In this document: positions 2,846 to 32,756 of the stretch, in pieces
How positions within the stretch are numbered: position 1 is the first letter of the stretch
Layout: the number at the start of each line of letters is the position of its first letter
DNA from: a virus
Taxonomy: Duplodnaviria > Caudoviricetes
DNA length: 38,068 bases
Reading direction: 5' to 3' (one strand)
Virus record (IMG/VR): IMGVR_UViG_3300033434_000387
Span: 1 to 38,068 of that record
Made by a program: the position numbers and the translations under genes
The notes under the pieces: generated by a model
Databases searched by the model: none
What the model saw: only the letters and a program-made list of their open reading frames with translations
What the model was told of the DNA's origin: nothing

Positions 2846-5101
2846 TTGGACAATGACTTAGCGAAACGCCGGACAGAGTTTCGGGCGGCGGTAGACAAGG
2901 ACCAGGAATGGCGCGATCAGGCCAGAGAGGATTATCAGTTTTACTATGGCAAGCAGTGGAATGAAAGTACTGAGCACCAACTCCGAGAGGCTGGCAGGCC
3001 GGTTATAACCGATAACCGTATTAAGCCGCTGATTAACCTTTTATCTGGCTATCAGCGACTTAATCGGTATGAAGCAGAATTCCTGCCCCGTACATCAGAA
3101 GATGAAGAACTATGCGCGGTACGCAAGGGCCTGACAAAGTTTATTACTGATCAATGCGACTATGGCACACAAGAAAGCCTAATGTTTATGGACGGCATTA
3201 TCTGTGGTCGGGGTTGGTTGGAAGTGTACTATGACATTGACTATGAGACACTGGAAGGTGAAGCCCAAATACGCCGAGTAAGCCCCTTTGATATATTCGT
3301 TGACCCGGAATGTAGAGAGCCGGATTATTCCGATGCCCGGTATATATGCCGGGCCAAGTGGACGGACAAAGATGAATTGAAGGCCATTTATCCTGAACAT
3401 GCCGATGAAATAGAAGCTATGACGGATGAGTACGATGAGGATGAACGGCATGAATATACAGGGATTGAACCATTATGGTATCAGCGAAATACCCGAAAAA
3501 TCAGGATGGTAGAGCATTGGCGAAAAGAAATATACCAGCGGCAATACTACCTTGTAGCCAACGGCGACTACGTTAAAAAGGAAGATTTAACTACCGAGCA
3601 TATTGTAGCTGGAATTGTTAAACCGGTGACACTTCCGGCTACGAAAGTGATTGTTACGATATTTGCTGATAAGGTGCTGTTAGAAGAAAAAGACTCGCCG
3701 TATGAACATGGCGAGTTCCCTTTTGTCCCCTATTTGGTGTACTACCTTGGCGAAGATGATATATCTGCCGGTGTGATTCGCGATCTTAAAGACCTGCAAC
3801 GGGAAATCAATAAGCGTAGGAGTCAATCTATCAATATTCTAAATACGCAGATGAACTCCGGGATGATATATGAGCAGGGTGCAATAGACAAAACGCAGAA
3901 GGAAAATTTTAAAAAGCTTGGTACTACACCTGGAGTTATGCTTGAAGTTATGCCCGGGGGATTGCAAAGAATAAAAATGATTGATCCGGCACCAGCACCC
4001 GCCGGAGAAATCCAAATGTTGCAGGAAACTGTACAGGCCATGAAAGACGAATCGGGCGTGAATGAATCCATGCTCGGTTCTGATATTCCGTCTGGTACGT
4101 CAGGCAAGGCCATAGAGTTACGGCAGAAAGCGGCGATAACCCACATAGGTGGACTGTTTGATAACCAGCGGCGATCTAAATTACAGGTTATGTTCAGGCT
4201 ATGGGGCCGGAAAAACAAAAAGGGCATAATTCAACAGTATTACACAGAGGAACGCACCTTCCGTATTATCGGTGATAACGGCAAGCAAGACTTTATGACC
4301 ATTAACAAGCAGGTGCCGGATCAGGACTCAGATGGCAATGCAGTTTGGCGCACGCTGAACGATATGTCTACCACGGAGTTTGATATTGTGGTTAGTGACA
4401 CGCCAGCGGCTTCTACTCAGCGTATTGCTCAGTTCTGGGCGCTTACCGATGCTGTCAGCAAACTTGGTATACCTGGCGATATGGTATTTGATATTCTCAT
4501 CGATCTTTGCGACTTACCGCAGAAAGAAGAAATCAAAAAACGGTGGCAGGAACGGCAACAGGCTCAACAACAGGCCGCAGGTCAGGCGCAAGAGAAAGTC
4601 AACGCATCACTCAACTTCAAGGACTTGCCGCCTGATGGTCAACAACAGTTTGCGGCTAAACTTGGTATTCAATTGTCGCCGCAATCGTATGGGGGGATGG
4701 TCGCGCAGGGACAAGGTATTAACTCGCAGACCCAACCCCAAGCGCAACAGCAGGAACCTGGTATATTGCAACAAGTTATCCAGAGTCTACCAACGCAAGT
4801 GCTTCAACAGTTAGCGCAACTTGCCCATACTGATATACAGAAGTTTGCCCAAACCATTGCTTATATTGAAAAGCAACTGCCGCAACAGGTACAGCAGCAG
4901 ATAGCACAGGAGGTGCAAAGAGTACAGCCACAGCAGTTAATTCAGATACTCTACAGTATGATAGTCCAAGCCTTACAGCAAGGATCGTCACCAACTCCAC
5001 CGTCCAATATGGGTCAACAGCAATCTACCCAGAATCAGCCGCAGACAATGACCAAGGCAGCTATGCAACAGGTGGCCGGGGATATGAATCCGAGCATATA
5101 A
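2846..5101 (+). CDS. Portal protein (P22-like) with Gln-rich C-terminal tail
   Basis: W...A.ED..FY.G.QW, GRP.IT.N.IKP.IN...G, FDIFVDP, PY.HGEFPFVPY, G.IRDLKD.QREINKRRS, SGKAI..RQ; TTG start with GGAGGTGG. Confidence 0.92.
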   Translation: MDNDLAKRRTEFRAAVDKDQEWRDQAREDYQFYYGKQWNESTEHQLREAGRPVITDNRIKPLINLLSGYQRLNRYEAEFLPRTSEDEELCAVRKGLTKFITDQCDYGTQESLMFMDGIICGRGWLEVYYDIDYETLEGEAQIRRVSPFDIFVDPECREPDYSDARYICRAKWTDKDELKAIYPEHADEIEAMTDEYDEDERHEYTGIEPLWYQRNTRKIRMVEHWRKEIYQRQYYLVANGDYVKKEDLTTEHIVAGIVKPVTLPATKVIVTIFADKVLLEEKDSPYEHGEFPFVPYLVYYLGEDDISAGVIRDLKDLQREINKRRSQSINILNTQMNSGMIYEQGAIDKTQKENFKKLGTTPGVMLEVMPGGLQRIKMIDPAPAPAGEIQMLQETVQAMKDESGVNESMLGSDIPSGTSGKAIELRQKAAITHIGGLFDNQRRSKLQVMFRLWGRKNKKGIIQQYYTEERTFRIIGDNGKQDFMTINKQVPDQDSDGNAVWRTLNDMSTTEFDIVVSDTPAASTQRIAQFWALTDAVSKLGIPGDMVFDILIDLCDLPQKEEIKKRWQERQQAQQQAAGQAQEKVNASLNFKDLPPDGQQQFAAKLGIQLSPQSYGGMVAQGQGINSQTQPQAQQQEPGILQQVIQSLPTQVLQQLAQLAHTDIQKFAQTIAYIEKQLPQQVQQQIAQEVQRVQPQQLIQILYSMIVQALQQGSSPTPPSNMGQQQSTQNQPQTMTKAAMQQVAGDMNPSI

Positions 5102-8298: not shown

Positions 8299-9345
8299 AT
8301 GTCTGAAAATAAATTTAAAGGCTTTGACCTTCAACGGTTTGCAGAGAGCCCTGTCATTCCTGCTTCTCTGAGAGAGCAAGCCTGGGCAAAGCAAACTTGG
8401 ACAATGGCACTAAAGGATACCACCATTTCAAATTATGTAGGTACTGGGACCGATAATATTGTTCAATATGATGATACATTGAAAAAAGATGCTGGAGATC
8501 AGATAACATTTCATCTGCGTGCGCCGCTTACAGGGGATGGAACAACTGGCGATGATGTTCTAGAAGGTAATGAGGAAGCCATGGAATACTATGATTTCCC
8601 GGTTACTATTGATCAACTCCGTCACGCTGTCCGGCTAAAAGGTAAGATGGCAGAAAAGCGAACTTCAATTAAGCTTCGTACTGAGGCAAAGGATGCGTTA
8701 AAAGACTGGAATGCAGAAAAAATTGAAACCATGTATTTTGATACACTTAATACGGATCCGTCTACTAATCGGATTGTTTATCCTGATGGCATTACAGCCA
8801 TTAGTTCAATTGCGGCTACCAACACCATGAGTTGTGCCATGATTTCAAAAGCTAAACGTAAGGCGAAAAAACGGTCAACTTATACCAGCGATGGTGTAAC
8901 CTATATTCTACCCAAAATCCGGCCTATCAAAGCTAATGGCAAATCAGTGTGGATAATGATTTTAACCGAAGAACAAATGCGTGATCTGAGAAATGATTCA
9001 ACATGGATTACCGCCCAAGCGAATGCTAATATCCGGGGTGAAGATAACCCGCTCTTCAGTGGTGCTGAAGGTATATGGGATGGAGTTTTGATCTTCACTA
9101 ATGATAATGTTGAAGTTACGGCAAGCGGAGCATCCAGCATCGATGTTGGACACGCTTTATTCTTAGGCGCACAGGCTGCTTGTTTCGCCGTTGGCGGTGA
9201 CCCGGAATGGAATGAAGAAGAATTCGATTACAAAAACAAAGTCGGGTTTGAATTTGGGCAAATCTTTGGAATTGCCAAATCGGTATATAACGGTGAGGAC
9301 TACGGAGTTATGCATGTGTATACCGCATCCGAAGCTGATGCTTAA
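8299..9345 (+). CDS. Major capsid protein (N4 gp56/DUF4043-like)
   Basis: L.KDAGDQITF.L...L.G.G..GD..LEGNEEAM...V.IDQLRHAV, RG..NPLFSGA.G.WDGV, LFLGAQA, W.EE.FDY.N..G, DYGV. Confidence 0.9.
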   Translation: MSENKFKGFDLQRFAESPVIPASLREQAWAKQTWTMALKDTTISNYVGTGTDNIVQYDDTLKKDAGDQITFHLRAPLTGDGTTGDDVLEGNEEAMEYYDFPVTIDQLRHAVRLKGKMAEKRTSIKLRTEAKDALKDWNAEKIETMYFDTLNTDPSTNRIVYPDGITAISSIAATNTMSCAMISKAKRKAKKRSTYTSDGVTYILPKIRPIKANGKSVWIMILTEEQMRDLRNDSTWITAQANANIRGEDNPLFSGAEGIWDGVLIFTNDNVEVTASGASSIDVGHALFLGAQAACFAVGGDPEWNEEEFDYKNKVGFEFGQIFGIAKSVYNGEDYGVMHVYTASEADA

Positions 9346-10387: not shown

Positions 10388-11077
10388 TTATAAATATTTA
10401 ATCCAATAATTATACTCTGGAAGTATTTGATTTGATTCAAAATATAAATTAGTTCGACCAATAATATTGCGAATTTTATCGTACTCTTGAGGAAGATTAG
10501 CATTAATTACTAAGCTTTTCATGCGGCAGTTGCAGTTACCATTGCGATTTTGCAAAATACATTCATCATTTAAGAAATTCCGTAGTTTGCGCCTGCTACG
10601 TGAAATAATTTTACGCATGCAATCTTCATTTTTATTAAATATGGTAGCAATTTCTGAATATGATAACTGTAAGATATCACGAAAAATATATGCTAAACGG
10701 CTTTCTTTATCTAAACAGTGTAACACACCACTGAGGCATTTATCACACATTTCTTGTACCAAGACATGCTCATCAAGGTTATTAGCTCCTGAAATTTTAA
10801 AATCTTCATTTCTGAAATATTCTCTTAAAAATTTTGTAGTATATAAGCGTTCATTATTAATACAGCGTAAACAGACGCGACGGGTTATTGAGTATATCCA
10901 AGTAGATAATTGTGATTTTCCTTTAAAAGAATGATAGCTTTTTATAATTTCTAACCAAACCTCTTGTGCAATGTCTTTAGATAATTCTTCATTATGGGTC
11001 ATTCTGCGACATATAGAAGTAACCATAGTTCCATAGTTACTAGTAAGGTCTTCAAAAAAATTGTCTGTCTTTTCCAT
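10388..11077 (-). CDS. ECF sigma-70 factor with Cys-rich linker and C-terminal extension
   Basis: Region 2 (DIAQEVWL...SFKGKSQLSTWIYSI) and region 4 (LSYSEIA......RK.ISRSRRKL); CDKC..LHC linker and C-terminal C.......CNC. Confidence 0.88.
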   Translation of the reverse strand: MEKTDNFFEDLTSNYGTMVTSICRRMTHNEELSKDIAQEVWLEIIKSYHSFKGKSQLSTWIYSITRRVCLRCINNERLYTTKFLREYFRNEDFKISGANNLDEHVLVQEMCDKCLSGVLHCLDKESRLAYIFRDILQLSYSEIATIFNKNEDCMRKIISRSRRKLRNFLNDECILQNRNGNCNCRMKSLVINANLPQEYDKIRNIIGRTNLYFESNQILPEYNYWIKYL

Positions 11078-17247: not shown

Positions 17248-18000
17248 ATGCAATCAACAGTGACACAAAGAGATATTATGTTTCGTCGGTTTCAAATACA
17301 TAAATTTAAAAGGGAAAGTATGTTTCCAACAGTTACGTTGACAATTAACATTAATGTTACTCATCTGGCAGAATTAAAAAGAAAATGGAATGAAATGCAT
17401 AGTTGTATTGCGCATTTAACTTTTACACATATTATAATTAAAGCTGTAGCAGATACATTAATGAATTATCCGGAATTATATAGCCTTTCTGAAGGGACTA
17501 ATATTATTCCAAGCTCGGATTTAATATTAAACATTCCTGTTGCTGTGGAAAAACATGTTGAATATATAGTAATTAATCAGCCGGAATCAAAAAATATTTT
17601 GGATATTTCGCAGGAATGCCAAAGTGAAATATCCAAAATTCGTAACGGTAATGGTGAGTTTATGAATTTTCTTATTCATATGTTCAAAGTTCCCGTTAAA
17701 GCAGCTAATCACAGTCCAGTTGAGTTTATGCAGCATTATGGAAATTTTGTAATTTCAAATATGGGATCTTTTCATGTTGATAGTGGTTCGCTGGCAATAA
17801 CGGAGCCTTTGATTGCCGGACTTTGCTTAGGTGCTATTACACCAATTGTAAAGTGTCAAGCAAATAGCTTTATAGAAGTTATGAACATTCCTATAACTAT
17901 TTCATTTGACCATCGAGCAATTGATGGAGCATATGCGGGGAATTTCTTGAATGACGTGAAAAAACTATTAGAAAATCCAGAACAAATCTTTTGCAGTTAA
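17248..18000 (+). CDS. Stand-alone 2-oxoacid dehydrogenase E2-type acyltransferase catalytic domain (CAT-like fold)
   Basis: IKAVA..L..YPEL, GNFVISNMG, SFDHRAIDGA.AG.FL..VK..LE.P; no lipoyl or E3-binding domain; AT-rich. Confidence 0.85.
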   Translation: MQSTVTQRDIMFRRFQIHKFKRESMFPTVTLTININVTHLAELKRKWNEMHSCIAHLTFTHIIIKAVADTLMNYPELYSLSEGTNIIPSSDLILNIPVAVEKHVEYIVINQPESKNILDISQECQSEISKIRNGNGEFMNFLIHMFKVPVKAANHSPVEFMQHYGNFVISNMGSFHVDSGSLAITEPLIAGLCLGAITPIVKCQANSFIEVMNIPITISFDHRAIDGAYAGNFLNDVKKLLENPEQIFCS

Positions 18001-18048
18001 TTTTAAAAAACTAGTACAGCGTCCGCTAAGAAAGCCTTATGTAAAAAA

Positions 18049-18078
18049 CACCGTTTCGTTGCTTGAAGTGGTGCTTTT
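18049..18078 (+). terminator. Probable intrinsic terminator
   Basis: CACCGTTTC/GAAGTGGTG stem (with G-U pairs) plus CTTTT. Confidence 0.5.
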
Positions 18079-18215
18079 GATTATATTTACATATGATCTT
18101 GACAACGTTTATTTAAATTTATAGTGATACAAAGGATTGATGTGGTTGTCAAGTATGAAATATAAATAGATTGATAACTATTATCATGAAATAAATGTAA
18201 AATGGAGGCCTAAGA

Positions 18216-18692
18216 ATGAATTTACAAACTGTCACTATTGAGCCAATAATGTTAATCGGTATTGAAGAAAAGACAAAAAATGAAAATGAAATAAACGGTA
18301 AAGGAAAAATTCCGAAGCTAATCCAAACCTTTTACTCCGAAATGTTAAGTAAAATTTCGAACCGTCATGAAAACCATATTTTATCGGTCTACACAGATTA
18401 TGAATCAGATGAAAATGGATATTATACTTATTTCATAGGTGCAAAAGTTAAAAACTTAAGTTACATTCCCGAAGGAATGGTAGGGAGAACAATTTCTTCA
18501 TCTCGTTACGCAATTATCCCTTCTGCTATTGGTAAAATTCCAGATATCGTCATAAACGAATGGAAACAAATCTGGTTAGACGATGCCTTAAAGGAAAAGA
18601 GAGCTTATTCAACGGATTTTGAACTATACGACAAACGATGTTCAAATGTTGATTATGCCCAAGTTGATATATATATCGCTATTAAAGATTAG
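18216..18692 (+). CDS. GyrI-like small-molecule-binding protein
   Basis: IGI...T.NE.E....GKIP.L, VYTDYESD..G.Y.Y.IG.V, IPEGM, W..IW, RAY.TDFELYD.R, VDIYIA. Confidence 0.88.
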   Translation: MNLQTVTIEPIMLIGIEEKTKNENEINGKGKIPKLIQTFYSEMLSKISNRHENHILSVYTDYESDENGYYTYFIGAKVKNLSYIPEGMVGRTISSSRYAIIPSAIGKIPDIVINEWKQIWLDDALKEKRAYSTDFELYDKRCSNVDYAQVDIYIAIKD

Positions 18693-20100: not shown

Positions 20101-21966
20101 ATGGGACAAGTTATATATATCCCATCCCAAGATAGATGGGGTAATCTTGGTGCAACGGTAGGTCAGCAACTTGGTAATATTCTTGCCGCTAAAGCCAAAA
20201 ATGAAGCTTTAGAAAAAGGGTTGGATACAGCAAGCAAATTATATGATGCGGCTACTCATCCTACAGCAACCAATGACCAGATAACGTCAGCCGCCAGCCA
20301 ATATACTGGCATTCCTGGGTTAGTTGGCATGAATGCCGTTCAAGGTTTAGCTAACATGCAAAATACCTGGAACGCTGCCAGTAATCAAATGGAGTCTATT
20401 AATAATCAACTGGCGAATACAAGTGATCCAAATGTGCAAAAAACGTTAACCGACCAGAAAACAGCATTGCAGAACCAAATGGACACAGCAAATCAAAAGG
20501 CTATTTGGATGAGGACAGCGGTAGGAAACAAAGGGGCTGATTTAACCGGCTTGGGCGCAGATGATGATGTAAACCAATACATTCAAAACAGTAATGCTTT
20601 AAAAAATAGTTTACTGCCTCAATCAGCGACGACTACTTCGGCATTGCAAAGTATCAATAATGCTACGGGCACTTACGATAACGCTCAAAATGAGTTAAAT
20701 AGTATTAATGCACAATTAGCCAATCCCGATGAAAACACTGATGTTACAGGCTTGCAGACAAGAGCCGCGCAATTACGAAAAGATATGGATACCGCCCATG
20801 CGGATGCGGAATGGACACGTAATTCGATGTTTAATCCTAGTTTGCTTGGAACAAAGGGGCAATCGGTAGTTGGCGCTGACGGTAATTATAATAGTCAAGG
20901 GTTATTACCAGGAAATATGGATTTAACCAACTCATTTAGTAAGGCATTAACCAACGCTGATAACAATAAATATCAGATAACCTTAGATGATGTTGCAAAG
21001 GACCAAAACATATCTAATTATGCAAAAGCGGCGGCTTATGCTGCGGCTAGAGAAAAGTTTAGCCCGACTCAATATGAAAACCAAGCAATGCAAGCGCTAT
21101 TAAAGGCTGGTTTAAGTTCTGATGCAATTGCTAAGTTACAACCAATGATTGAAAAACAAGCTTCAGATATAGGTAGTAATTATTTAGCTAGTATGTTAGC
21201 AGCAAACAACGGTGATACAAGAAATGCGGCAATATATGCTTTAGGTAGTGGCTTGGGTAGTGCTGGTATTAATATGGCCCAAGCGTTTGCACCTAAGACA
21301 CAGATTGATAAAGTCGATACTGGCGATAAAATTGGATTATATTCAACAGCAACAAGTCCGTTTGGTGGTACGCCTACGTTTTCGCCTGGACCAACATATT
21401 TAAAAGGTAATAGCCCGGGTGATATATTACATGCTCAATTAACTAGGGAGCAATTAAAGCAAAATAGCGATCAATTCAGTGCAAAAATGCAGCAAAGCCA
21501 AGATCAGTTTAATAAGAATTTCCAACTAGCCCAAGTAAAATTAGGGCTTGAAAAAGATAATCAAGTTAGACAACAAGGCTTACAGCAACTTCAAATTATA
21601 GCGGGCATGGCAAATAATTATAAGGCTACAATAAGTGGCTATCAAGACCAAATTAGTGCAATTATTAAATCTGGTAATGGTATGCTGACTCAAGCAGACA
21701 AAGATAGTGTTGCGGCGCTAAATCAGAAGATAAATAATACAACTATGCAATATGAGTCATTAAATAAAACATTAGCTAACTCATTTGGTATTCAACTCCA
21801 ACAGTCAGATAACAATAGTCAATCGACCTACCAGCCATCTGCTGAAGAACAAGGAATAGCAGATTGGATTGATAAATGTAAAGCGAATGGTGCTACTGCT
21901 GACCAAATAAAACAAAAATTAAAAGATAAAGGTTATGGAAATAGATTCGATAGTTGGGTTTATTAG
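20101..21966 (+). CDS. Ejection protein 2 (P22 gp20-like position)
   Basis: Q/N/A-rich helical protein, W..LG..VG..LG N-terminus, internal duplication. Confidence 0.65.
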   Translation: MGQVIYIPSQDRWGNLGATVGQQLGNILAAKAKNEALEKGLDTASKLYDAATHPTATNDQITSAASQYTGIPGLVGMNAVQGLANMQNTWNAASNQMESINNQLANTSDPNVQKTLTDQKTALQNQMDTANQKAIWMRTAVGNKGADLTGLGADDDVNQYIQNSNALKNSLLPQSATTTSALQSINNATGTYDNAQNELNSINAQLANPDENTDVTGLQTRAAQLRKDMDTAHADAEWTRNSMFNPSLLGTKGQSVVGADGNYNSQGLLPGNMDLTNSFSKALTNADNNKYQITLDDVAKDQNISNYAKAAAYAAAREKFSPTQYENQAMQALLKAGLSSDAIAKLQPMIEKQASDIGSNYLASMLAANNGDTRNAAIYALGSGLGSAGINMAQAFAPKTQIDKVDTGDKIGLYSTATSPFGGTPTFSPGPTYLKGNSPGDILHAQLTREQLKQNSDQFSAKMQQSQDQFNKNFQLAQVKLGLEKDNQVRQQGLQQLQIIAGMANNYKATISGYQDQISAIIKSGNGMLTQADKDSVAALNQKINNTTMQYESLNKTLANSFGIQLQQSDNNSQSTYQPSAEEQGIADWIDKCKANGATADQIKQKLKDKGYGNRFDSWVY

Positions 21967-21977
21967 GAGGTGGAATT

Positions 21978-24900
21978 GTGGCTGATGTTGACGACATACT
22001 AGATTCGTTACCGGATAATAAAAAGTCACAGGCTTCTGCGCAAGATGTACTTGATTCTTTACCGTCATATTCTGCTCCATATTCCGGCTACTTAGATGCT
22101 GCGTGGCGTAATGCTAAAGCGGGTTTCGGTAGTGTCTATGGAGGTATCGGGAGATACGCCGAAGTCCATGCCCCAGAAGTAGCGAATTTAGTACAAGACC
22201 TTAATGCAGCAGGATTGGCCTATAATAATCCTATTGCCAACAGCGATAAGATTACGCAAATTGTATCCACTTCTCCTACAGACAGTGATATAAATGCAGT
22301 AAAAAACGTTGCTAAATCTGTAGGGGATTGGGGAACGGATGTAGCTGATTCCAATATACCTAAGGATGCAAAACAATATGGGGATTGGGATTGGCTACCG
22401 TTTATGTCTGACTACTGGACCAATCCAGCTGGGGCCGCAGCAGCTACGGGGCAGGGTGTTGGTAGTAGTGCAGCTTTAATTCCTATAGGCCTTGCTATTG
22501 CGCCCCTTTTGCCAGAAGAACTACCAGCCGCAGGCGCTGGGCTTTTAGGTAAAGGTTTGACTAATATTGGTCTTAATAAATTAGGTCAAAAAGTAGCCTC
22601 GGAAGCTGGGCAGAATATGCTCAAGTGGGGCACTGCTGGCGCGATAAGTAAAATTCCCGAAGCCGTATCTGAAGGCGGCAATATAGTTGATGATTTGCGT
22701 AAACAGGGGTATAGCGATGAGCAAATTAAAGGTATTGCCGATAAGGTAGTAGGAAAGAACATACCTTTGCTAATGGCAGAAGGTGCATTAGAACTAACCG
22801 GTCTTACTGGCAAGCTTGGTAAGGCGGTATTGAGTCCTACCGATTCAACTTTAAAAAGCATAGGTAAAAATATTGTTTTAAATACGGCCACTGGTATGCC
22901 AACCGAATGGTATACAGAAGGGGCGCAGCAGGCAATACAAAATGAAGCGACTGGCCAAAGAGCGCCTAGTGGTTTAGGTTTTGCTAATCCGCTTACATGG
23001 GGACCGGACGAATTTGGTGCAGCTGGTGCCGGGGCGGTTAGCGCTCTCGGATTAGGCGGTATTGGTGGTGCATATGCTGGTGTAGTCAATAAAGTTGTTA
23101 AGGCCGCTGAAGCTAATAATAGTAAAAAGGTATTAGATGCACTTCCCGAAGCTATCACCACTGAACAACCGGAGGAATCGGCTCAAAACGGATCGGATTT
23201 GACTCCAAGCGTAACGGAAGCGGCTGCACCAGCCAATAATTTTGAAACCTTGGTAAATGCCATATCCGGCCAAGAATCGGGTGGCAATTATGATGCAGTA
23301 AATAGTCGAACCGGAGCGGCCGGCAAATTTCAAATCATGCCCGGTAACTGGGCAAGCTGGGCGCAAGATGCTGGATTATCCCCGGATGCACCAATGACCG
23401 CGGAAAATCAGGAGCTTGTTGCTAAAAATAAATTACGCCAGTATTACGATAAATATGGGGCTAGAGGTGCGGCTATTGCCTGGTATGGCGGGGAAGGCGC
23501 TCTCGACTATTCTGATGAAGCAAAGAACCGAAAACAAGGCAATGGCGACGAACCGAGTATAAATGAATATGCAGATTCGATTATGTCCCGAATGGGAAAC
23601 CAAGGCGGATCGGCTACCGGGGCTTTAGATGATATTGGCGATATTAAGATTAATACCGATGATTTAACTTCAATTCAGTTGAGCGATATTAAAACATGGG
23701 CCGAGGAAAAAGCTGAAACAGCGACAGATGAAAAAGAAATTAACTTTTTGAATGAAGCCGTTGATAATGGACGAATTAAAGATATAGTTGAAAAGTACCC
23801 GGTGCAAATTGCTGATTTGCTACGTGGCGATAAAGCCACAGAATCAGCCGTAGACGGCGAAAAGACATCAACCAATGCAATTACACCTACAAGTAAAGAA
23901 AACCCCGCTACGGCTAACCCCGAGCAGGGTGATCAATCAAATTCTAGTGACCTGATTGTTCAGGCACGTAATGTTGCCGGAACAGGTGATTATACCCAAG
24001 CAGCCTCATTAGCAACTCAGGCCGGGGATAATGTTTTAGCGGAAGCTTATCTGTTAATGGCCGAACGGTATAACAATACTACTGGAAATGAAGCTACTAA
24101 AACGCAAGTGAACCCAATACCGTCTATTGATAACAAACCAATTGGTAGGCCAGCCATTACCGGAAACGCTGATGTTGTAAGGTCGGATGACGGAGAAGAA
24201 TTTCCAACACGGCTTGAAGATAATCAGGCACAAGTAAATAAGTCTAACGTTCAGATTATTGACAATACCGAGAAAAACGGCATTGAGCTTAAATTTGACG
24301 GAAAGCCAAATGATGAAATTCGTGATAAGTTAAAAGCTAATGGCTTTAGGTGGAATCGCGGAAAAAAAGTGTGGTACGCTAGAAAATCCGATAAGGCCGT
24401 AAGCGTAGTCAATGAAATAGCTAGTCTTGGTTTAACTAACGAACAACCACAAGAACAACGAGATGCCGGAGAACCTTCTACCGTAGACTTATTAAAAATG
24501 ATTCAAAACGGAAGCTTTACACCGCGCGAATTTGCCAATCAGTACGGAGAAAATGCATTTAATAGACTAAGACAAAGTAAATATATCGCGGCACCAGGCG
24601 GTAAATTGATATTGTCGGATGCTGGTAGGCAATTTGTGGATGTGGTAGGAAAGGCAACTAACAAGTCTAGCAATGAAATTGAAGCTGAAAATTCTCCGAA
24701 AAATGATTATAATGAAGGCGATAGAGTAACTTGGCAAGATCATAATGGCAATCAATTAACTGGCGCTGTTAGAAGTATAGACAACAATAACGGCCAACCC
24801 TATATGATGGTTAATACCGACCAGATAGCAACCTATGGAGGTGGCGTGCCGATTGGCCGAATTGAAATGGTTCGGTTGTCGGATAAGTCGCTGAGCAAAA

Positions 24901-27900
24901 TTGAGAAGCCGGCAGATGAAGAACAGACAAAACCCGATACTAATGTTGACAAGCAAGACGGGAAAATTAACGTTACTCAATTGAAATTAGAAGAGAAGCC
25001 ACAACAGACTGAACTTCGGCGGTTGCCTGACCAACATCAGCAATCGTCACAGGAGAAGGTTGCTTCTAATCCTGATGCTAATTTAACTGAATACCAACAG
25101 GCGGTTGTTAAAGTTGCTGATTGGGTAAAAGTTAGATTAAGTGTCGGTGAAAAATTCATTTCACAAGAATTGTTTGCAATTGCTGATAAAGCCTTTAATG
25201 GCACTCAAAGCAATGGAAAATATACCCCTAAAGATGCTTACGATGCGATGGAATTAGGCATTAATAAGTATTTGCTTGAACAAGGTTATGTGGATCCATC
25301 CAAAGCACATAATGCGGAAGAAGCTATAAAGGCTGTTGAAAAAATAAAGAAGGATATTTTAGACAAGATACCAACTCAGACAAAACGGACTGCGGAAATG
25401 GATGAATTTCAGCAATTCTCAACGCCTCCGACTTTAGCGTATGTAGCTGCTTGGGTATCTAACGTAAGCTCTAATGATATTGTACTTGAACCTTCGGCTG
25501 GTATTGGCGGAATTGCTACATTTGCCAAATTAGCAGGTGCTAAGGTCAATGTAAATGAGTACAGTGATCGGCGCGCCAGTATCATTAAGCAACTGGGATT
25601 CGATAAGGTATTTACCGAAAACGCCGAGCAATTAAATAATATTTTACCTGAAGACGTTAAGCCTACGCTTGTACTTATGAATCCACCGTTTAGTTCTACC
25701 GCTGGTAGGATGCAAGGTAAACGTCAAACTAAAAACGCAACACTGCACATTGAACAGGCTTTGCAAAGATTAGAACCAGGCGGCAGGTTAGTAGCGATTG
25801 TCGGTAAAGGTATGGCCGACAATGCACCGTCATTTAAAAATTGGTGGAAAAAGATAAAATCTGAGTATAATGTACGGGCCAATGTGGGCATAGACGGTCA
25901 AAACTATACTAAATATGGCACTAGTTTTGACAATAACCTTTTTGTAATTGATAAGACTGGTCCAACTGAAAATACTATAACTGGTAATTTCACTGGGTTA
26001 GATGAAGTTTTAACTGCATTGGAGGGTGTGCGTGATGAATTTAAAGGAACGAGAGAATCAAATGCAATCGCTCAATCAGTCACCACTCAACCGAATAGCA
26101 AAGTCACTACTAGCGAAAGCCAAAGTAAAGCTAGATCAGACGGACGAACAGGAGGCATTGAACGTGTACCGGCTAATGGATTGGGCGTTGGAAACGGGCG
26201 AGGTACGTCTGAGGAAACCGGAGGATACGAACAATCTGCTAGAAATGGTCGAAAAGATAATGCTTCGAGCGAATCCTCAGAAATCAATGGACTTTCTAAC
26301 GAAAGTGGACGAGGACGACGGGGAGAGTACGATGACCAGAAATTGCATGAGAATCAACAATCCGGTGGAAGCAGCGGAATATTTGATACAAATGTTAAAA
26401 CTGAAACTGGATTGTCTTCCGGATTAAAAGTCGAACAAATTGATAATCATAATGATAGCAATAAAGAATTAACGGATTCCACATTCAACGATTATCAGCC
26501 ACAAAAACTTAAAATACTAGGTGCAAAGCCTCATCCATCACCCCTAGTGCAAAGCGCGGCTATGGCAGCAGTCGAACCACCAGCACCTACATATTCACCT
26601 AAATTGCCAAAGGAGATAATTAGTAAAGGTAAACTATCCATTGCACAACTAGAGCCTGTAGTTTATGCAGGCCAATCATTTGAGCAAACCCTTCCGAATG
26701 ATACAAGGAAGGGTTATTTTATTGGAGATGGCACAGGGGTTGGCAAGGGCAGGGAAATATCCGGTATTATTATGGATAGCCTTAATAGCGGAAAAAAGAA
26801 AGCAGTTTGGGTATCAAAAAATGATCCGCTATTTGACGATGCGGTGAGAGATTGGACGGATATAGGTGGCAATAGCGATCAAATATTTCCTATTAGGAAA
26901 ATAAAGGCTGGTATGGATATTCCTACACGTGATGGTATTTTGTTTATTACATACCCTACATTAGCTAACAACCTTGAAGCAAATGGGAATGGTGAAGGGG
27001 TTAAAGAAAAGGTTGGAAAGTCTTCACGTCTCAGACAAATCGTTAATTGGTTAGGCAAAGACTTTGATGGTGTAATTGCTTTTGACGAAGCGCATATGAT
27101 GGCTAATTGCTTACCAATGAAGGGGAAACGTGGCAATAAAAAGCCATCCGCCCAAGGGCTTGCTGGAGTTGAATTTCAAAAACGGTTGCCTAATGCACGT
27201 ATTATTTATGTTTCAGCAACTGGAGCAACAGAAGTCTCAAATTTGGGATATGCTACTCGCCTAGGCTTGTGGGGTGAAGGCACGGCCTTTAGTGATGTAA
27301 ATGATTTTGTTTCACAAATCAATTCTTCCGGGTTAGCTGCGATGGAACTTATCGCACGGGACATGAAAGCTTTAGGCGTATATTTGGCCCGTAATCTTAG
27401 CTATGATGGTGTTACCTATGGGACCCTTGTCCATGATCTTACCACTGAACAGCGCGAAATATATGATACTATGGCCCAAGGATGGCAAATTGTATTACAG
27501 AATATTCATGAGGCATTAAAAACTACCGGGGCAATTAGTGAAGATGGTAAAACCAAAAATCCTAATGCTAAGAAAAATGCGCTTGGCCAATTTTGGGGCT
27601 CGCAACAACGATTTTTTAATCAGATACTAACATCTATGCAAATGCCTGCTGTTATTGATGATGTTAGAAAACAAATCAAAGCAGGCAATTCAATCGTTAT
27701 GCAGTTAGTTAATACAAATGAAGCAATTCAAAATAGATCGCTTTCAAATATGGAAGAAGATACAGCGCTAGAGGATTTAGATATGACTCCCCGCGATATT
27801 CTTATGCAGTTTTTAGATAAATCCTTTCCGGTGGCACAGTACGAAGAATTTATAGATGATGAAGGCAATAAAAGATCAAGACCTGTAAAAGATAGTCAGG

Positions 27901-30900
27901 GTAACCCTGTTTTAAATCAAGCTGCAGTTAGTATGAAAGAAGATTTAATGAATCGGTTAGGCTCTATGAAAGTACCGGAAGGACCACTAGAATTAATCAT
28001 TAATACTTTCGGAACTAAAACGGTAGCCGAAGTAACCGGGCGGCAACGCCGGGTTGTTCGCGAAAAAGATGATTCAGGACATAGTGTATCTAAAATTGAA
28101 AAACGGTCTAAGTCTCATAATAAAGCCGATGTAAAAGCTTTTCTTGATGATAAAAAAGCTATTCTTATTTTCTCAGAAGCTGGCGGTACAGGCCAAAGTT
28201 TTCATGCTGGTGCTAATATGAAAAACCAGCGGCGTAGAATACATTACCTCATTCAACCCGGATGGCGTGCTGATAGTGCGGTTCAAGGGTTTGGCCGTAC
28301 TCACCGATCTGGTGAAGTTTCACAGCCTCATTATGTTCTTGTTACTACTAACCTTAAAGGGCAGAAACGGTTTATTTCAACTATAGCGAGAAGATTAGAT
28401 CAATTGGGCGCATTGACTAAAGGCCAGCGTGATGCCGCCAATCAAGGATTATTTAGTGCAAAAGATAATCTTGAATCAGAATATGCGAAAGATGCTTTGC
28501 AACGATTTTATGAAAATTTAATGCACAACGTATATAAGGATTTAAATATTCACCAACTATTAATAAAAATGGGCTTAGAATCCTTAGAAAATAATGATGA
28601 TAACATTAATAAACGTAATGTTAATGTTGAGACGATGAGGGATGTTCCTAAATTTCTAAACCGAATATTAACTTTAGATTCTAATGAACAAAATCAGGTG
28701 TTTGATTATTTTATCGATATATTGGATCAAATAATTGACACTCATGTTGCTAATGGTACGCTTGATACTGGTATGGAAACATTGCGTGCGGACGGAGTAC
28801 AAGTTAAAGACGAAAAAACTGTTTATTCATCAGATAGTAATAATGCTGAAACAAAATATGTAGAGCTTGAAGCAAAATACAAAAATGAGTTTTTTTCTTA
28901 TGAAAAGGCAATACGCCTAAGAAATTTCATTGGTTTCTACAAAAATGAAAAGAGCGGTAAGATATGGGCTGTCCGCCAAGGCGCGAGTAGAACAAATGAA
29001 CGAGGCGCAGTAACCAATACCTATGTTCTGCAAAGTCCTTCTTTAAATAGGTATCGGTCAATAGATGAACAAGAATTTAAGCGTGATGGATGGAAGCAAT
29101 TAAAAGAAGATCAAGGTAAAGAATTGTGGGAACAGGCATTATTAGAAGAACCAAAATATCGGAATGAAACTTTACACATGATAACGGGTGCAATTCTTCC
29201 GATATGGGATAGATTGCCACAAGGACAAGCTAGAGTTATCCGGGTGCAAGCAGATGATGGCCGTGTATTCTTAGGGCGAATTATAAAGGAAAGAGATATT
29301 GCTGCTACTCTTAAACGACTTGGAACATCTAAAAAATATAATTTTTCAACTGATGATATTAAAAATAAAATTCTAAATGAAAACAACGAAGTTGAATTAG
29401 CTAATGGCTGGAAATTAGATAGAAGGCGGGTATCTGGAGAAAACCGAATAGAAATAATTGGCGATAATCTTTGGAAATACGATTCTCAATTCCAAGAACA
29501 TGGCATTATCCGCGAACGTATTCAGTATAATACCCGTTATTTCTTGCCGACGGGTGAAGAATTTAAACCATCTTATGAATGGTTGACAAAGGATCGACAG
29601 GTTACCGATGTCGTTGCTCCTGAAAGAAGCTCATCTAATAAATTCAATTCAGGCCTTGATCCTACCTTTGGTAAACTCGATAATATTGATCTTGCCGGAG
29701 AAATAAAAAAAGCGGCTGGTAACATACAAGATGCTATGCCGGGGCTAATCGAATTGGGCAAGCGCCTGGTTGCAGAAGGCTATAACAAGTCCGGGGAATG
29801 GGCCAAGAAAATGCGTGAGTACCTTGGTGATGTTTGGGGCAAGGTTAAAAATAAGATAGTTGATGTTTGGAAACAGGTTAAGGATACGGTAGCCAATGAA
29901 CGGGGTAGTTTTAGGCTTGGCACAGAGGCTACAGCGGCTGATGAAGAAGCTGATAACAGTATAAGTACGAAACAGGTAGATACTGTTGACAGTTCCGACA
30001 TTGCCGAAGTCAATGAAAAAGCTACGTTAAAACTAGCCCAAAAGATGGGCATAAAGCCAGCTGACAATGTTGCGATCCGAAATAAGTCAACTTCAAATAA
30101 AATTGGCTTATTTTCTAATGCGCTTCAATCTGTAAATGAGCTTGTTCGACAACACCAGAAATTAAAACCATTTTTTCGGTTAGCTACTATCGCTATGGAA
30201 AAGCAAGAAAGTTTGAGAAATGAGTTTAGGCACCGGATGGATAAATGGGAGTATGTGCTTGGCCGCCGCGAACTGCTGAAATATAAGCGGCTTAAAAATG
30301 AACCGGACTACAAAGAAAATAAGCTCAATTTATATAAGATATTACTTCAAGGCGATATTGACGGCAAAGACTATACTAATAATGAATTACGTGAAGCCGG
30401 TTATTCGGATAAGGTAATTAAGGCATATCGTATGGTGCGTGTGGCGATGGATAAAGCCTATACTCTGGCAAACGATATTCGCCAAGGCCTTGAAATCAAG
30501 TCGGAAAACCTAAACTCGTACCAATTAGCAAAGTTGAAAGAGAATAGATTCATCACGATATTGAAGGAGACACCATCTAATGGTGATCTCACCTTAGTGT
30601 CGTACAAAACCCCTAAAATTCGTGAAGATACAGCGGTTATGAGTAAACAAAACTTTGCGGAAATGAGGGATAATCCAAATGTCCAGATACTAAGCGCCAA
30701 CCCGTATGGAGTTACGGAACATGCAATGCCAGAAAGTAGCGGCTTAACCCGCGGTGATGGTTTTTACGAGGTTCACTATATGAGCCAAACCCCGCCTATT
30801 AACAAGCTTGGCGGGTACATTCCGCATTTCTTCCACGATTGGTTTATCATGAAGAAGATAACAGATGGAGAAACTGGCAAAACCACCTACAAGATGCTGG

Positions 30901-32756
30901 ATTCTGGTAATACCATGCGGGAAGCGATTCAAAAAGCTAATAAGATTGCAGCGGCTAACCCGGATATGGATATTGTGATTCAACCGAAACAGTTTAAGTT
31001 TCCGGGAGAAGAAATGCAGGCTGCGGTTGTCGGTGATTATCAATATTTTAAGATGCAGCAAAAAATAGCAGAGGATTTGCAAATTAGTTTATTCGATGCC
31101 AAACAGTTTATGGATGGCAAGGTAAGTATGAAAGGTCGCCATAGGTTCATGGGTAACTTCCTACAACGTAAAGGTGCGGAAGGTTATGAAAAGAACCTTG
31201 ATTGGGTACTGTCACATTACTTCAATATGGTTGGCCGTTATGTGGCAATGGACCCATTTAAATCAAAGGCTATCAGTACCTATGAACGTTTATTTGGACG
31301 GTGGGACAGTGCAAGCCATGAAGGTGAAGGTGCCTACGTCAAAGATTACATTAACGATGTTAATGGGGTGCCAACTAACATTGAAAAAGCGTTGAATGAT
31401 GCACTAGACTTAAACCCTATCTTTAAAAAGTATCTAAGTGCTTATTTGGGAGATCGGCCAGCTCTCCAGCTTGTCTCAGGACTAACCAATACAATTACGG
31501 GTTTGAAATTAGGTATGTTAAATGTGTCTTCGGCGCTACTTCAATTTGCTCAATTCAGCAATATAGGCGCAATACTAAATGACTATGGTGCCGCTTCAAA
31601 TGGTCTTACCCGATCAATAAGACCGAATTTAGCCGACCGTATCATCTTGCGAAAAGCCGGTGTAGATACAAATTTAACGTTGGCAAGCGGTAGTTATTCC
31701 CGAGCAAGTAATATGGGTAAGCTATTTAAGAACTCAACGATTCTATTTAACTACTTAGATATGTTAATGCGTCGGGCGGCAATATTGGGAGCCTATCACA
31801 AATCGATTAGTGAAGGCAAGAGTGAAGAAGAAGCCATGCAATATGCGAAGTTTGTAAACACTAAAGCTAACTTTGATTACAGCGTGGCCGATTCGCCAAA
31901 CCTATTCAGGCGTGGTGGTCCGGCGGCGCAACTTTTACTGCAATTTAAGAAATTTGGTCTTAAAGAAGTAGAGCTTATGGGCGACTTGCTACGTGAAGGT
32001 AGCGTAGGACAAAACCTACGGCTATGGGTACCACTATTACTACTTTCTGGACTTTTTGCCGGACCTCCGTTTTTGAATACTTTTATTGAATTATTAAGTG
32101 GAATTTCCGGTGTTGATTTTGAGGAAAAGATAAAGAAAGTCATGTTTGCTTGGGCTGGTGAAGATAAGCTTCGTCTAAACCTTGTTAAAGCTGCAACATA
32201 TGGTGTGTTCGCTACTGAGTATACCGGCGGTGTGGATATTTCTAACCGTACTGGCCTTGCGGATATACTGCCAACGGAATTAAAAGATGCATTAGGACCA
32301 ACGATTGGTACATTTATATCGGTAATAAGAGAAGCATCTAAGGGTAATGTTAATGAAACGTTGAAGGCTATTTCTCCTGGCGTGGGGAATATTGCGCAGG
32401 CTATTACTGGTGAATCAAAAACTACTCGAGGACGGATAAATAATGTTTATGATACTATGTATGAGCGTGTCGCGAAGGGCTTGGGCTTCCGGCTGACGGA
32501 TGAAGCTGTGGCCTCTGATTTGCGCAATATTATTAGTACAGAGCAAAAAGAAAAACAAGCCGAAGATGCTGAGGCTATTGATAGCTATATTGATAATCCA
32601 TCCGATAAAAACCGAGGTAAGCTGGTGGAACGCAGTATTTCTGGTAAGCGGGTAAATGCGGAAATGCAAAAGAAGAGTAAAACTGGCTTAGAACGGAGCC
32701 TACAAAATATATCTAAAGGCCAACGGGGCGAGTATGAGTATATGATGCTGCCTTAA
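21978..32756 (+). CDS. Giant polyvalent ejection protein (~3590 aa): Gly/Ala membrane region, lysozyme-like transglycosylase, amino-MTase, Strawberry-notch SF2 helicase and internal-virion-type C-terminus
   Basis: GTG 21978 after AGGAGG; ESGGNY...GA.GKFQIMP (~23270); QFSTPP, VLEPSAGIG, MNPPFSS (~25410-25700); IGDGTGVGKGR, FDEAH, YVSATGA, SEAGGTGQSFHA, QGFGRTHR (~26720-28310); GYIPHFF and ANFDYS...QFKKF in C-terminus. Confidence 0.88.
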   Translation: MADVDDILDSLPDNKKSQASAQDVLDSLPSYSAPYSGYLDAAWRNAKAGFGSVYGGIGRYAEVHAPEVANLVQDLNAAGLAYNNPIANSDKITQIVSTSPTDSDINAVKNVAKSVGDWGTDVADSNIPKDAKQYGDWDWLPFMSDYWTNPAGAAAATGQGVGSSAALIPIGLAIAPLLPEELPAAGAGLLGKGLTNIGLNKLGQKVASEAGQNMLKWGTAGAISKIPEAVSEGGNIVDDLRKQGYSDEQIKGIADKVVGKNIPLLMAEGALELTGLTGKLGKAVLSPTDSTLKSIGKNIVLNTATGMPTEWYTEGAQQAIQNEATGQRAPSGLGFANPLTWGPDEFGAAGAGAVSALGLGGIGGAYAGVVNKVVKAAEANNSKKVLDALPEAITTEQPEESAQNGSDLTPSVTEAAAPANNFETLVNAISGQESGGNYDAVNSRTGAAGKFQIMPGNWASWAQDAGLSPDAPMTAENQELVAKNKLRQYYDKYGARGAAIAWYGGEGALDYSDEAKNRKQGNGDEPSINEYADSIMSRMGNQGGSATGALDDIGDIKINTDDLTSIQLSDIKTWAEEKAETATDEKEINFLNEAVDNGRIKDIVEKYPVQIADLLRGDKATESAVDGEKTSTNAITPTSKENPATANPEQGDQSNSSDLIVQARNVAGTGDYTQAASLATQAGDNVLAEAYLLMAERYNNTTGNEATKTQVNPIPSIDNKPIGRPAITGNADVVRSDDGEEFPTRLEDNQAQVNKSNVQIIDNTEKNGIELKFDGKPNDEIRDKLKANGFRWNRGKKVWYARKSDKAVSVVNEIASLGLTNEQPQEQRDAGEPSTVDLLKMIQNGSFTPREFANQYGENAFNRLRQSKYIAAPGGKLILSDAGRQFVDVVGKATNKSSNEIEAENSPKNDYNEGDRVTWQDHNGNQLTGAVRSIDNNNGQPYMMVNTDQIATYGGGVPIGRIEMVRLSDKSLSKIEKPADEEQTKPDTNVDKQDGKINVTQLKLEEKPQQTELRRLPDQHQQSSQEKVASNPDANLTEYQQAVVKVADWVKVRLSVGEKFISQELFAIADKAFNGTQSNGKYTPKDAYDAMELGINKYLLEQGYVDPSKAHNAEEAIKAVEKIKKDILDKIPTQTKRTAEMDEFQQFSTPPTLAYVAAWVSNVSSNDIVLEPSAGIGGIATFAKLAGAKVNVNEYSDRRASIIKQLGFDKVFTENAEQLNNILPEDVKPTLVLMNPPFSSTAGRMQGKRQTKNATLHIEQALQRLEPGGRLVAIVGKGMADNAPSFKNWWKKIKSEYNVRANVGIDGQNYTKYGTSFDNNLFVIDKTGPTENTITGNFTGLDEVLTALEGVRDEFKGTRESNAIAQSVTTQPNSKVTTSESQSKARSDGRTGGIERVPANGLGVGNGRGTSEETGGYEQSARNGRKDNASSESSEINGLSNESGRGRRGEYDDQKLHENQQSGGSSGIFDTNVKTETGLSSGLKVEQIDNHNDSNKELTDSTFNDYQPQKLKILGAKPHPSPLVQSAAMAAVEPPAPTYSPKLPKEIISKGKLSIAQLEPVVYAGQSFEQTLPNDTRKGYFIGDGTGVGKGREISGIIMDSLNSGKKKAVWVSKNDPLFDDAVRDWTDIGGNSDQIFPIRKIKAGMDIPTRDGILFITYPTLANNLEANGNGEGVKEKVGKSSRLRQIVNWLGKDFDGVIAFDEAHMMANCLPMKGKRGNKKPSAQGLAGVEFQKRLPNARIIYVSATGATEVSNLGYATRLGLWGEGTAFSDVNDFVSQINSSGLAAMELIARDMKALGVYLARNLSYDGVTYGTLVHDLTTEQREIYDTMAQGWQIVLQNIHEALKTTGAISEDGKTKNPNAKKNALGQFWGSQQRFFNQILTSMQMPAVIDDVRKQIKAGNSIVMQLVNTNEAIQNRSLSNMEEDTALEDLDMTPRDILMQFLDKSFPVAQYEEFIDDEGNKRSRPVKDSQGNPVLNQAAVSMKEDLMNRLGSMKVPEGPLELIINTFGTKTVAEVTGRQRRVVREKDDSGHSVSKIEKRSKSHNKADVKAFLDDKKAILIFSEAGGTGQSFHAGANMKNQRRRIHYLIQPGWRADSAVQGFGRTHRSGEVSQPHYVLVTTNLKGQKRFISTIARRLDQLGALTKGQRDAANQGLFSAKDNLESEYAKDALQRFYENLMHNVYKDLNIHQLLIKMGLESLENNDDNINKRNVNVETMRDVPKFLNRILTLDSNEQNQVFDYFIDILDQIIDTHVANGTLDTGMETLRADGVQVKDEKTVYSSDSNNAETKYVELEAKYKNEFFSYEKAIRLRNFIGFYKNEKSGKIWAVRQGASRTNERGAVTNTYVLQSPSLNRYRSIDEQEFKRDGWKQLKEDQGKELWEQALLEEPKYRNETLHMITGAILPIWDRLPQGQARVIRVQADDGRVFLGRIIKERDIAATLKRLGTSKKYNFSTDDIKNKILNENNEVELANGWKLDRRRVSGENRIEIIGDNLWKYDSQFQEHGIIRERIQYNTRYFLPTGEEFKPSYEWLTKDRQVTDVVAPERSSSNKFNSGLDPTFGKLDNIDLAGEIKKAAGNIQDAMPGLIELGKRLVAEGYNKSGEWAKKMREYLGDVWGKVKNKIVDVWKQVKDTVANERGSFRLGTEATAADEEADNSISTKQVDTVDSSDIAEVNEKATLKLAQKMGIKPADNVAIRNKSTSNKIGLFSNALQSVNELVRQHQKLKPFFRLATIAMEKQESLRNEFRHRMDKWEYVLGRRELLKYKRLKNEPDYKENKLNLYKILLQGDIDGKDYTNNELREAGYSDKVIKAYRMVRVAMDKAYTLANDIRQGLEIKSENLNSYQLAKLKENRFITILKETPSNGDLTLVSYKTPKIREDTAVMSKQNFAEMRDNPNVQILSANPYGVTEHAMPESSGLTRGDGFYEVHYMSQTPPINKLGGYIPHFFHDWFIMKKITDGETGKTTYKMLDSGNTMREAIQKANKIAAANPDMDIVIQPKQFKFPGEEMQAAVVGDYQYFKMQQKIAEDLQISLFDAKQFMDGKVSMKGRHRFMGNFLQRKGAEGYEKNLDWVLSHYFNMVGRYVAMDPFKSKAISTYERLFGRWDSASHEGEGAYVKDYINDVNGVPTNIEKALNDALDLNPIFKKYLSAYLGDRPALQLVSGLTNTITGLKLGMLNVSSALLQFAQFSNIGAILNDYGAASNGLTRSIRPNLADRIILRKAGVDTNLTLASGSYSRASNMGKLFKNSTILFNYLDMLMRRAAILGAYHKSISEGKSEEEAMQYAKFVNTKANFDYSVADSPNLFRRGGPAAQLLLQFKKFGLKEVELMGDLLREGSVGQNLRLWVPLLLLSGLFAGPPFLNTFIELLSGISGVDFEEKIKKVMFAWAGEDKLRLNLVKAATYGVFATEYTGGVDISNRTGLADILPTELKDALGPTIGTFISVIREASKGNVNETLKAISPGVGNIAQAITGESKTTRGRINNVYDTMYERVAKGLGFRLTDEAVASDLRNIISTEQKEKQAEDAEAIDSYIDNPSDKNRGKLVERSISGKRVNAEMQKKSKTGLERSLQNISKGQRGEYEYMMLP
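26035..26427 (+). CDS. Nested +1-frame gene (130 aa, helical, unknown function) overprinted on the MTase-helicase linker
   Basis: GGAGGG at 26021-26026, 8 nt before ATG; globular L/M/E/K-rich sequence while the host frame is S/G/R/N-rich and disordered over the same span. Confidence 0.65.
   Translation: MNLKERENQMQSLNQSPLNRIAKSLLAKAKVKLDQTDEQEALNVYRLMDWALETGEVRLRKPEDTNNLLEMVEKIMLRANPQKSMDFLTKVDEDDGESTMTRNCMRINNPVEAAEYLIQMLKLKLDCLPD

Follow-up and report, generated by a model that had tools for sequence, protein, structure and literature searches.

A Conserved Gene Nested Out of Frame in the Methylase-Helicase Linker of Giant Phage and Plasmid Genes and Its Possible Role as a Methylase Inhibitor

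The Giant Gene and Its Context

The window, i.e., the whole stretch of DNA analyzed (38,068 nucleotides), is a 38-kb phage record carrying on its plus strand a P22-like portal gene of the virion morphogenesis module (2846..5101), a capsid protein gene (8299..9345) and a giant polyvalent protein gene (21954..32756) of 3,600 codons, as counted from the first TTG, its putative start. In the giant protein, an SLT transglycosylase domain (23220..23510, plus strand, residues 423-519) is followed by a helical N-domain with an N6-adenine methyltransferase (25113..26036, plus strand), in which the STPP, EPSAGxG and NPPF motifs are intact, and then by a Strawberry-notch-type helicase, with its N lobe (AAA_34, E 1.5e-118) at 26529..27470 (plus strand, residues 1526-1839) and its C lobe (Helicase_C_4, E 4.6e-86) at 27987..28778 (plus strand, residues 2012-2275). 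The domain N-terminal to the methylase consists of four helices in the AlphaFold2 model, and Pfam gives no LPD36 match there. The gene bears the marks of the methylase-helicase dyad of polyvalent proteins, namely the conserved STPP and NPPF motifs and an SF2 Strawberry-notch-like helicase located C-terminally. DarB of phage P1 is the archetype of this dyad (Iyer et al., 2017, PMC5512222), and, as far as that source describes it, the window protein resembles it in the fusion of an N6-adenine methylase (TP and NPPF motifs) to a Strawberry-notch SF2 helicase and in the packaging or conjugation context. The module surrounding the dyad is represented by the portal and capsid genes in the window and by a tra operon in NC_016108 and NZ_CP064652.

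Several other genes of the window are of separate interest. At 17248-18692, a gene with a 2-oxoacid dehydrogenase acyltransferase domain and a GyrI-like gene break up the morphogenesis module and are likely cargo. The phage late region also contains an alpha/beta hydrolase gene (1512-2702, plus) and, oriented oppositely, a gene for an ECF-type sigma factor (10388-11077, minus).

The Open Reading Frame Nested in the Linker

Between the methylase and the helicase, the preliminary description, made from the sequence alone, had placed a hidden gene read in the +1 frame of the giant one, and its signals were found exactly as described there: a Shine-Dalgarno (SD) sequence GGAGGG (26021..26026, plus strand), written in Leu-Glu-Gly codons of the last helix of the methylase, is separated by an 8-nt spacer from the ATG at 26035, which opens 130 codons of the +1 frame (26035..26427, plus strand) terminated by TAA at 26425-26427; the alternative ATG at 26062 is present as well. 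The open reading frame (ORF) does fill the linker, since it starts inside the last methylase helix and stops 38 nt ahead of the helicase block. Over almost the same interval the frame-0 linker (26082..26417, plus strand; residues 324-435 of the fragment starting at 25113) is predicted by AlphaFold2 to be disordered (pLDDT <50), and the 130-aa nested product, P0001 (pI 5.0), is predicted to be a compact, all-helical protein (AlphaFold2: pLDDT 89.9, pTM 0.84). The family to which it belongs is acidic (median pI 4.64, median net charge -8) with a basic N-terminal third, the window protein itself being only mildly acidic (net charge -4).

Searches of Pfam and PHROGs gave merely scattered matches of one or two members of the nested family, PADLOC gave no match for P0001, no PDB sequence matched the nested protein below E 0.03, and the ESM Atlas returned no usable match. 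Fold searches yielded nothing at E 0.001 (best Z 4.5), which is not proof of a new fold, and in the searches run there was no significant fold or profile match to known DNA mimics of the Ocr/Arn/ArdA type. The nested proteins appear to form a new family of small proteins without a match among known folds. As the preliminary description anticipated, standard annotation misses the gene: it is unannotated in both plasmid records that carry it, and gene callers skip it wherever the giant gene is intact.

Conservation of the Nested Frame among Relatives

Relatives were fetched by the helicase, not by the ORF (170 loci, best 80 per search). This set and the window comprised 141 distinct loci with both methylase and helicase, 111 of them with linkers of at least 345 nt and 30 with shorter ones; dereplication at 90% helicase identity left 96 long-linker loci. 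Translation of the +1 frame of these homologous linkers, the check proposed at the outset, revealed an open frame of at least 100 codons in 94 of the 96 loci. The start lies within 12 codons of the same site, mostly at the identical codon, and is ATG in 91 cases and GTG in three. The two long-linker loci lacking the ORF are L038, which is frameshifted, and L160, where another domain is inserted. None of the 30 short-linker loci matched the profile of the nested family, a chance ORF of 100 codons being present in four of them under permissive starts. In a second set, fetched by the methylase and overlapping the first in part, an ORF of at least 85 codons was found in 107 of 109 long-linker loci (80 match the profile) and in 2 of 23 short-linker loci (none matching); this set also held 16 loci that were truncated or had no helicase.

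The carriers include phages, Bacillota prophages and tra operons of Methylococcales plasmids. A phmmer search of 1.84 billion representatives recovered 31 relatives of the nested protein (database clusters), all of 114-149 aa, although word-index homolog searches with P0001 or alignment A3 found no relatives; direct locus searches with P0001 and P0005 gave no match either.

Some loci at the margins of the family deserve mention. In a divergent clade (L226, L227, L232, L236, L238, L242, L243, L245-L247, L287, L291, L292 and L311), SD-led acidic +1 ORFs occupy the same site with a weak match to the profile or none, and may represent remote members of the family or additional families. The phage relatives L160 and L234 have long linkers without the nested gene downstream of the methylase, and in L160 an apparently folded domain sits at its site.

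Tests against Chance and Selection on the Frame

The initiation signals of the nested gene are fixed at positions where the giant protein leaves a free choice of codon. The Asn/Asp/His codon that supplies the AT of the start codon, at a site defined solely by the methylase, has T as its third base in 82 of 83 loci against 36.8 expected, and the Glu codon of the SD, also at a fixed position, is GAG in 61 of 71 relatives against 34.6 expected; a conserved Asp codon used as a control ends in T in 42 of 96. The expected counts were calculated from the codon usage of each gene, and the loci are related but share less than 90% protein identity. When synonymous codons of the window were redrawn with the frame-0 protein preserved, the +1 frame remained free of stops in 0.68% of the 20,000 draws. 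These 136 open draws reached at most 22.2 bits against a family profile from which the window had been left out, on which the real ORF scored 83.0 bits. Such synonymous shuffles contain on average 3.8 +1 stops per 130 codons.

Outside the linker, about 270,000 frame-0 codons of 99 loci contain 22 SD-led out-of-frame ORFs of at least 80 aa, five of which are internal starts of the same nested gene and the other 17 are mutually dissimilar. Two Lys/Ala/Ser-rich SD-led out-of-frame ORFs inside giant genes resemble shadow ORFs less closely than the others do: one of 103 aa in L127, located 1.8 kb before the methylase end, and one of 82 aa in L158, located 2.9 kb before it.

Substitutions in 24 independent close pairs are distributed over the first, second and third codon positions of the +1 frame as 355/289/564. 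Among 202 isolated changes in close pairs, 114 are silent in the +1 frame and 33 in frame 0. In distant pairs (methylase identity below 60%), frame 0 outscores the +1 frame in most cases, which we attribute to the 19% Gly content of the linker. Judging from the substitution patterns, selection evidently acts more strongly on the nested frame than on that of the host gene; long nested genes of this kind are rare in prokaryotes. Frame 0 itself contains no stops in the long linkers, save that of the frameshifted L038.

Production of the nested protein as a +1 frameshift fusion with the methylase was considered and rejected, because in 92 of 94 loci the ORF is preceded by an in-frame stop at a distance of no more than 59 codons, which in 19 loci is just two codons, and because the start codon and the SD spacing fit initiation. 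The nested ORF is, on these comparative grounds, almost certainly a real conserved gene with its own SD and start.

Linker Length and Loss of the Nested Gene

The length of the linker follows that of the ORF (Spearman 0.87, n = 198, uncorrected for kinship and set overlap), and linkers of gene-less relatives are mostly 33-309 nt long. As the compared sequences indicate, the long linker is present where the nested gene is and evidently shrinks where the gene is lost; the nested gene would explain why the linker is long and rich in Gly, Arg and Ser. On a FastTree tree of 99 rows, comprising every second long-linker representative and with L237 and L307 labeled as carriers by eye, gene-less groups lie among carriers and the presence label switches five times, at least three switches being forced by well-supported branches (shuffled mean 26.6). 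With the root of the tree left open, the pattern would be explained most simply by repeated loss of an ancient nested gene. Lineages with an apparently intact methylase-helicase and no nested gene number at least three and probably about five, so the enzyme does not always need the nested gene. One gene-less, short-linker methylase-helicase, L332 on the Azospirillum plasmid NZ_CP032328, is flanked by a type I-E CRISPR-Cas locus on one side and by a gene for a phosphorothioate-dependent endonuclease on the other.

In two cases the helicase is missing: in L224/L334 the methylase and the nested gene (E 3e-17) are followed by other domains with no helicase in frame, and in L310, a 3.4-kb contig, they are followed by a stop. 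Extra inserts in the linker (L017, L025, L096, L133, L135, L159 and L335) all lie downstream of the nested gene; the lack of inserts upstream may have no other cause than the location of the SD in a methylase helix.

Stand-Alone Copies

A profile search with the nested protein in about 1,400 genome slots revealed 30 strong loci, two of them in centre genomes already present in the alignment. In 27 loci the gene is nested in an intact methylase-helicase frame, and in three it is intact and stands alone. The suggestion of the preliminary description that the two partners are genetically inseparable is therefore wrong. The old frame of the three orphans contains 10, 1 and 0 stops. The orphan with 10 stops, in G779, is located near McrBC, WYL and ADP-ribosylglycohydrolase genes. 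That of G727, identical to the database hit P0015, lies behind the decayed tail of a methylase gene in an integrase-replication element. G917 has lost both enzyme domains by deletion, and the SD and the gene are left behind a relaxase, on a mobilizable replicon and near HamC- and NsnA-like defense genes. In the orphan assemblies, which are possibly incomplete, the methylase profile matched decayed tails alone and no full methylase, and a helicase search, run without a positive control, was empty. Further genome samples gave no new stand-alone or nested matches.

The element of G727 (G727:C12, L378:2248-6680) is small and satellite-like, with integrase, Phg_2220_C and IstB-like replication genes. 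Of the weaker genome matches, L351-L354 represent an unrelated membrane protein that matches only in part and were dropped; L350 proved to be a frameshifted remnant.

Nested Frames in Other Methylase-Helicase Genes

It had also been supposed that such overprinting may be a general feature of DarB-like linkers, and this proved true in part: an unrelated nested family occurs in six cultured phages, and nested genes are absent from P1 darB and from several lineages. Unlike the window gene, P1 darB has no acidic SD-led nested ORF, all four of its out-of-frame ORFs of at least 60 codons failing to combine the two features. In Bacteroides phage BS-TP4 (L339:4710-5066), an acidic +1 ORF of 115-119 codons with a weak SD fills the methylase-helicase linker and does not match the profile of the nested family. 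A second SD-led +1 nested family, of about 130 aa, was found in Serratia phage Parlo (L340:680-1066) and Vibrio phage D274 (L341:728-1120), whose nested proteins are 33% identical; it is present in eight records of six cultured phages (the others being ZX1, Skulduggery, 45A6 and 1.232.O), unannotated under the giant genes, and hhalign found it unrelated to the family of the window. The P1, BS-TP4 and Parlo-type cases together indicate that nesting recurs but is not universal. In Parlo the nested gene lies just ahead of the helicase and the methylase is 2.3 kb downstream, so that the common rule could be a position upstream of the helicase.

Possible Function of the Nested Protein

As a tentative explanation, which we prefer among those considered, the helical nested product may bind the methylase module of the giant protein and inhibit it in trans in the producer cell. 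Both proteins would be made from one mRNA, late in the phage cycle or from the transfer operon of the plasmid, so that the inhibitor would always accompany the enzyme. Delivery would then carry the giant protein along with the DNA, as may be supposed by analogy with P1 DarB and with gp69 of JC1, which was found in virions (PMC9144972); the same analogy would suggest carriage in the virion and an anti-restriction activity. The small protein would stay in the producer and, left behind in this way, would confine the activity of the enzyme to the recipient. As to the stand-alone copies, they would represent orphan inhibitors that shield their carriers from related elements entering the cell. The retention of the nested gene with the methylase in the two helicase-less cases (L224/L334 and L310) speaks for the methylase as the target, as does the location of extra linker inserts on the far side of the gene, and the three intact orphans, with which no full methylase or helicase was found, speak for action in trans. 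Like immunity proteins, the family is encoded both with the enzyme (27 nested copies) and as orphans (3 copies), and orphan immunity genes exist as a precedent. A cognate inhibitor acting in trans fits best because of the methylase-linked retention, the small acidic build and the survival of orphans. Two further results are counted neither for nor against this explanation: prediction of a complex between the methylase module and the nested protein scored 0.16 (mark 0.32) in a run without control complexes, and inter-chain mutual information in 126 paired rows, uncorrected for kinship, reached a top z of 9.9 versus about 6 in row shuffles.

More speculatively, the linkers of giant delivered phage and plasmid enzymes might generally encode their own off-switch, the Gly/Arg/Ser-rich disordered linker being the out-of-frame shadow of an inhibitor gene of new fold, with at least two unrelated families in this place and with satellites, small plasmids and defense islands capturing the inhibitor as immunity to the methylase-helicase that incoming elements bring. 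If true, anti-anti-defense genes would lie unannotated in the low-complexity linkers of polyvalent proteins, which would serve as their reservoir.

The main rival explanation, itself rather doubtful, is that the nested protein is instead an independent anti-defense or exclusion factor directed at a host target, e.g., a restriction enzyme, and sharing only transcript and timing with the giant protein. Inhibitors of the Ocr/Arn type are small and acidic, as is the nested protein; intact stand-alone copies occur in mobile elements without the enzyme, and the family diverges fast, some of its sub-families having moved beyond the reach of the profile. However, 27 of the 30 strong matches are still nested at one fixed site, and phyla with differing defenses share this gene, both in phages and in tra operons of IncP-like plasmids. 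Moreover, the protein is only moderately charged and has a basic N-terminus, and one orphan lies in a defense island rather than in an anti-defense context.

A chaperone or escort, which would keep the giant protein soluble and guide its loading into capsids or the conjugation apparatus, is an unlikely role, although the gene is found in both virion and tra contexts and P1 needs accessory proteins for DarB packaging. Secretion chaperones are small, acidic and encoded beside their clients, and the nested protein recalls them in size, acidity and co-location. A pure chaperone or packaging role is opposed by intact client-less orphans, one of them with 10 stops in the old frame, and a chaperone by the several lineages that do without the nested gene.

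Binding or regulation of the helicase rather than the methylase would agree with the position of the nested gene directly upstream of the helicase, shared by the unrelated Parlo family, yet the gene persists in L224/L334 and L310, where there is no helicase, and domains are inserted between the two in at least seven loci, which makes such a target quite unlikely. That the protein is a positive subunit of the methylase, i.e., a target-recognition or activating partner, seems highly improbable: its N-terminal helix is conserved and basic, and it is encoded where gamma-class methylases carry their target-recognition domain, but it is acidic overall, exists in orphans, and is not replaced by any domain in the short-linker enzymes that have no nested gene. 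Finally, the ORF can hardly be an untranslated by-product of a hydrophobic-poor linker, even though such linkers have few +1 stops (the above mean of 3.8), given the ATG and SD fixed at synonymous codons, the selection on the +1 frame, the confidently predicted fold and the intact orphans.

Relation to Known Embedded Genes

Embedded genes as a kind are already known, Rz1, Slr0489S and comS being examples. In Bacillus subtilis, the small gene comS is read out of frame within srfAB, a giant gene for a multidomain protein; the 46-aa ComS peptide serves an unrelated pathway, and, in distinction to comS, the nested gene of the window is conserved across phyla at one site. The products of Rz and Rz1 work together. 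Rz1 is embedded in Rz in phage spanins (PMC9144972), so that here, too, a whole gene lies within another one on the same strand of a phage and in a different frame. However, Rz1 is a short lipoprotein encoded in a small lysis gene, whereas the protein of the window is a predicted globular one of 130 aa encoded in the inter-domain linker of a 3,600-aa enzyme and also stands alone. Slr0489S of Synechocystis, a slightly acidic protein of 112 aa from an internal out-of-frame ORF of slr0489, is supported by Ribo-seq and peptides (bioRxiv 10.64898/2025.12.20.695498); compared by description, it differs in being chromosomal and in having as a host a 151-aa protein with a signal peptide, and no relation to methylase-helicases is stated for it.

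No description of a nested gene in the methylase-helicase linker was found in the literature, subscription journals and supplements being outside the scope of the search. In the main text of PMC5512222, supplements likewise lying outside the scope, the word "linker" is absent, "reading frame" occurs once in an unrelated sense, and no nested gene is mentioned. The nested gene offers a handle on the control of DarB-like methylase-helicases between producer and recipient cells. Cultured carriers include Methylotuvimicrobium alcaliphilum 20Z, on whose plasmid NC_016108 the nested ORF lies within MEALZ_RS20390, and, for the second family, Pseudomonas fluorescens phage Skulduggery.
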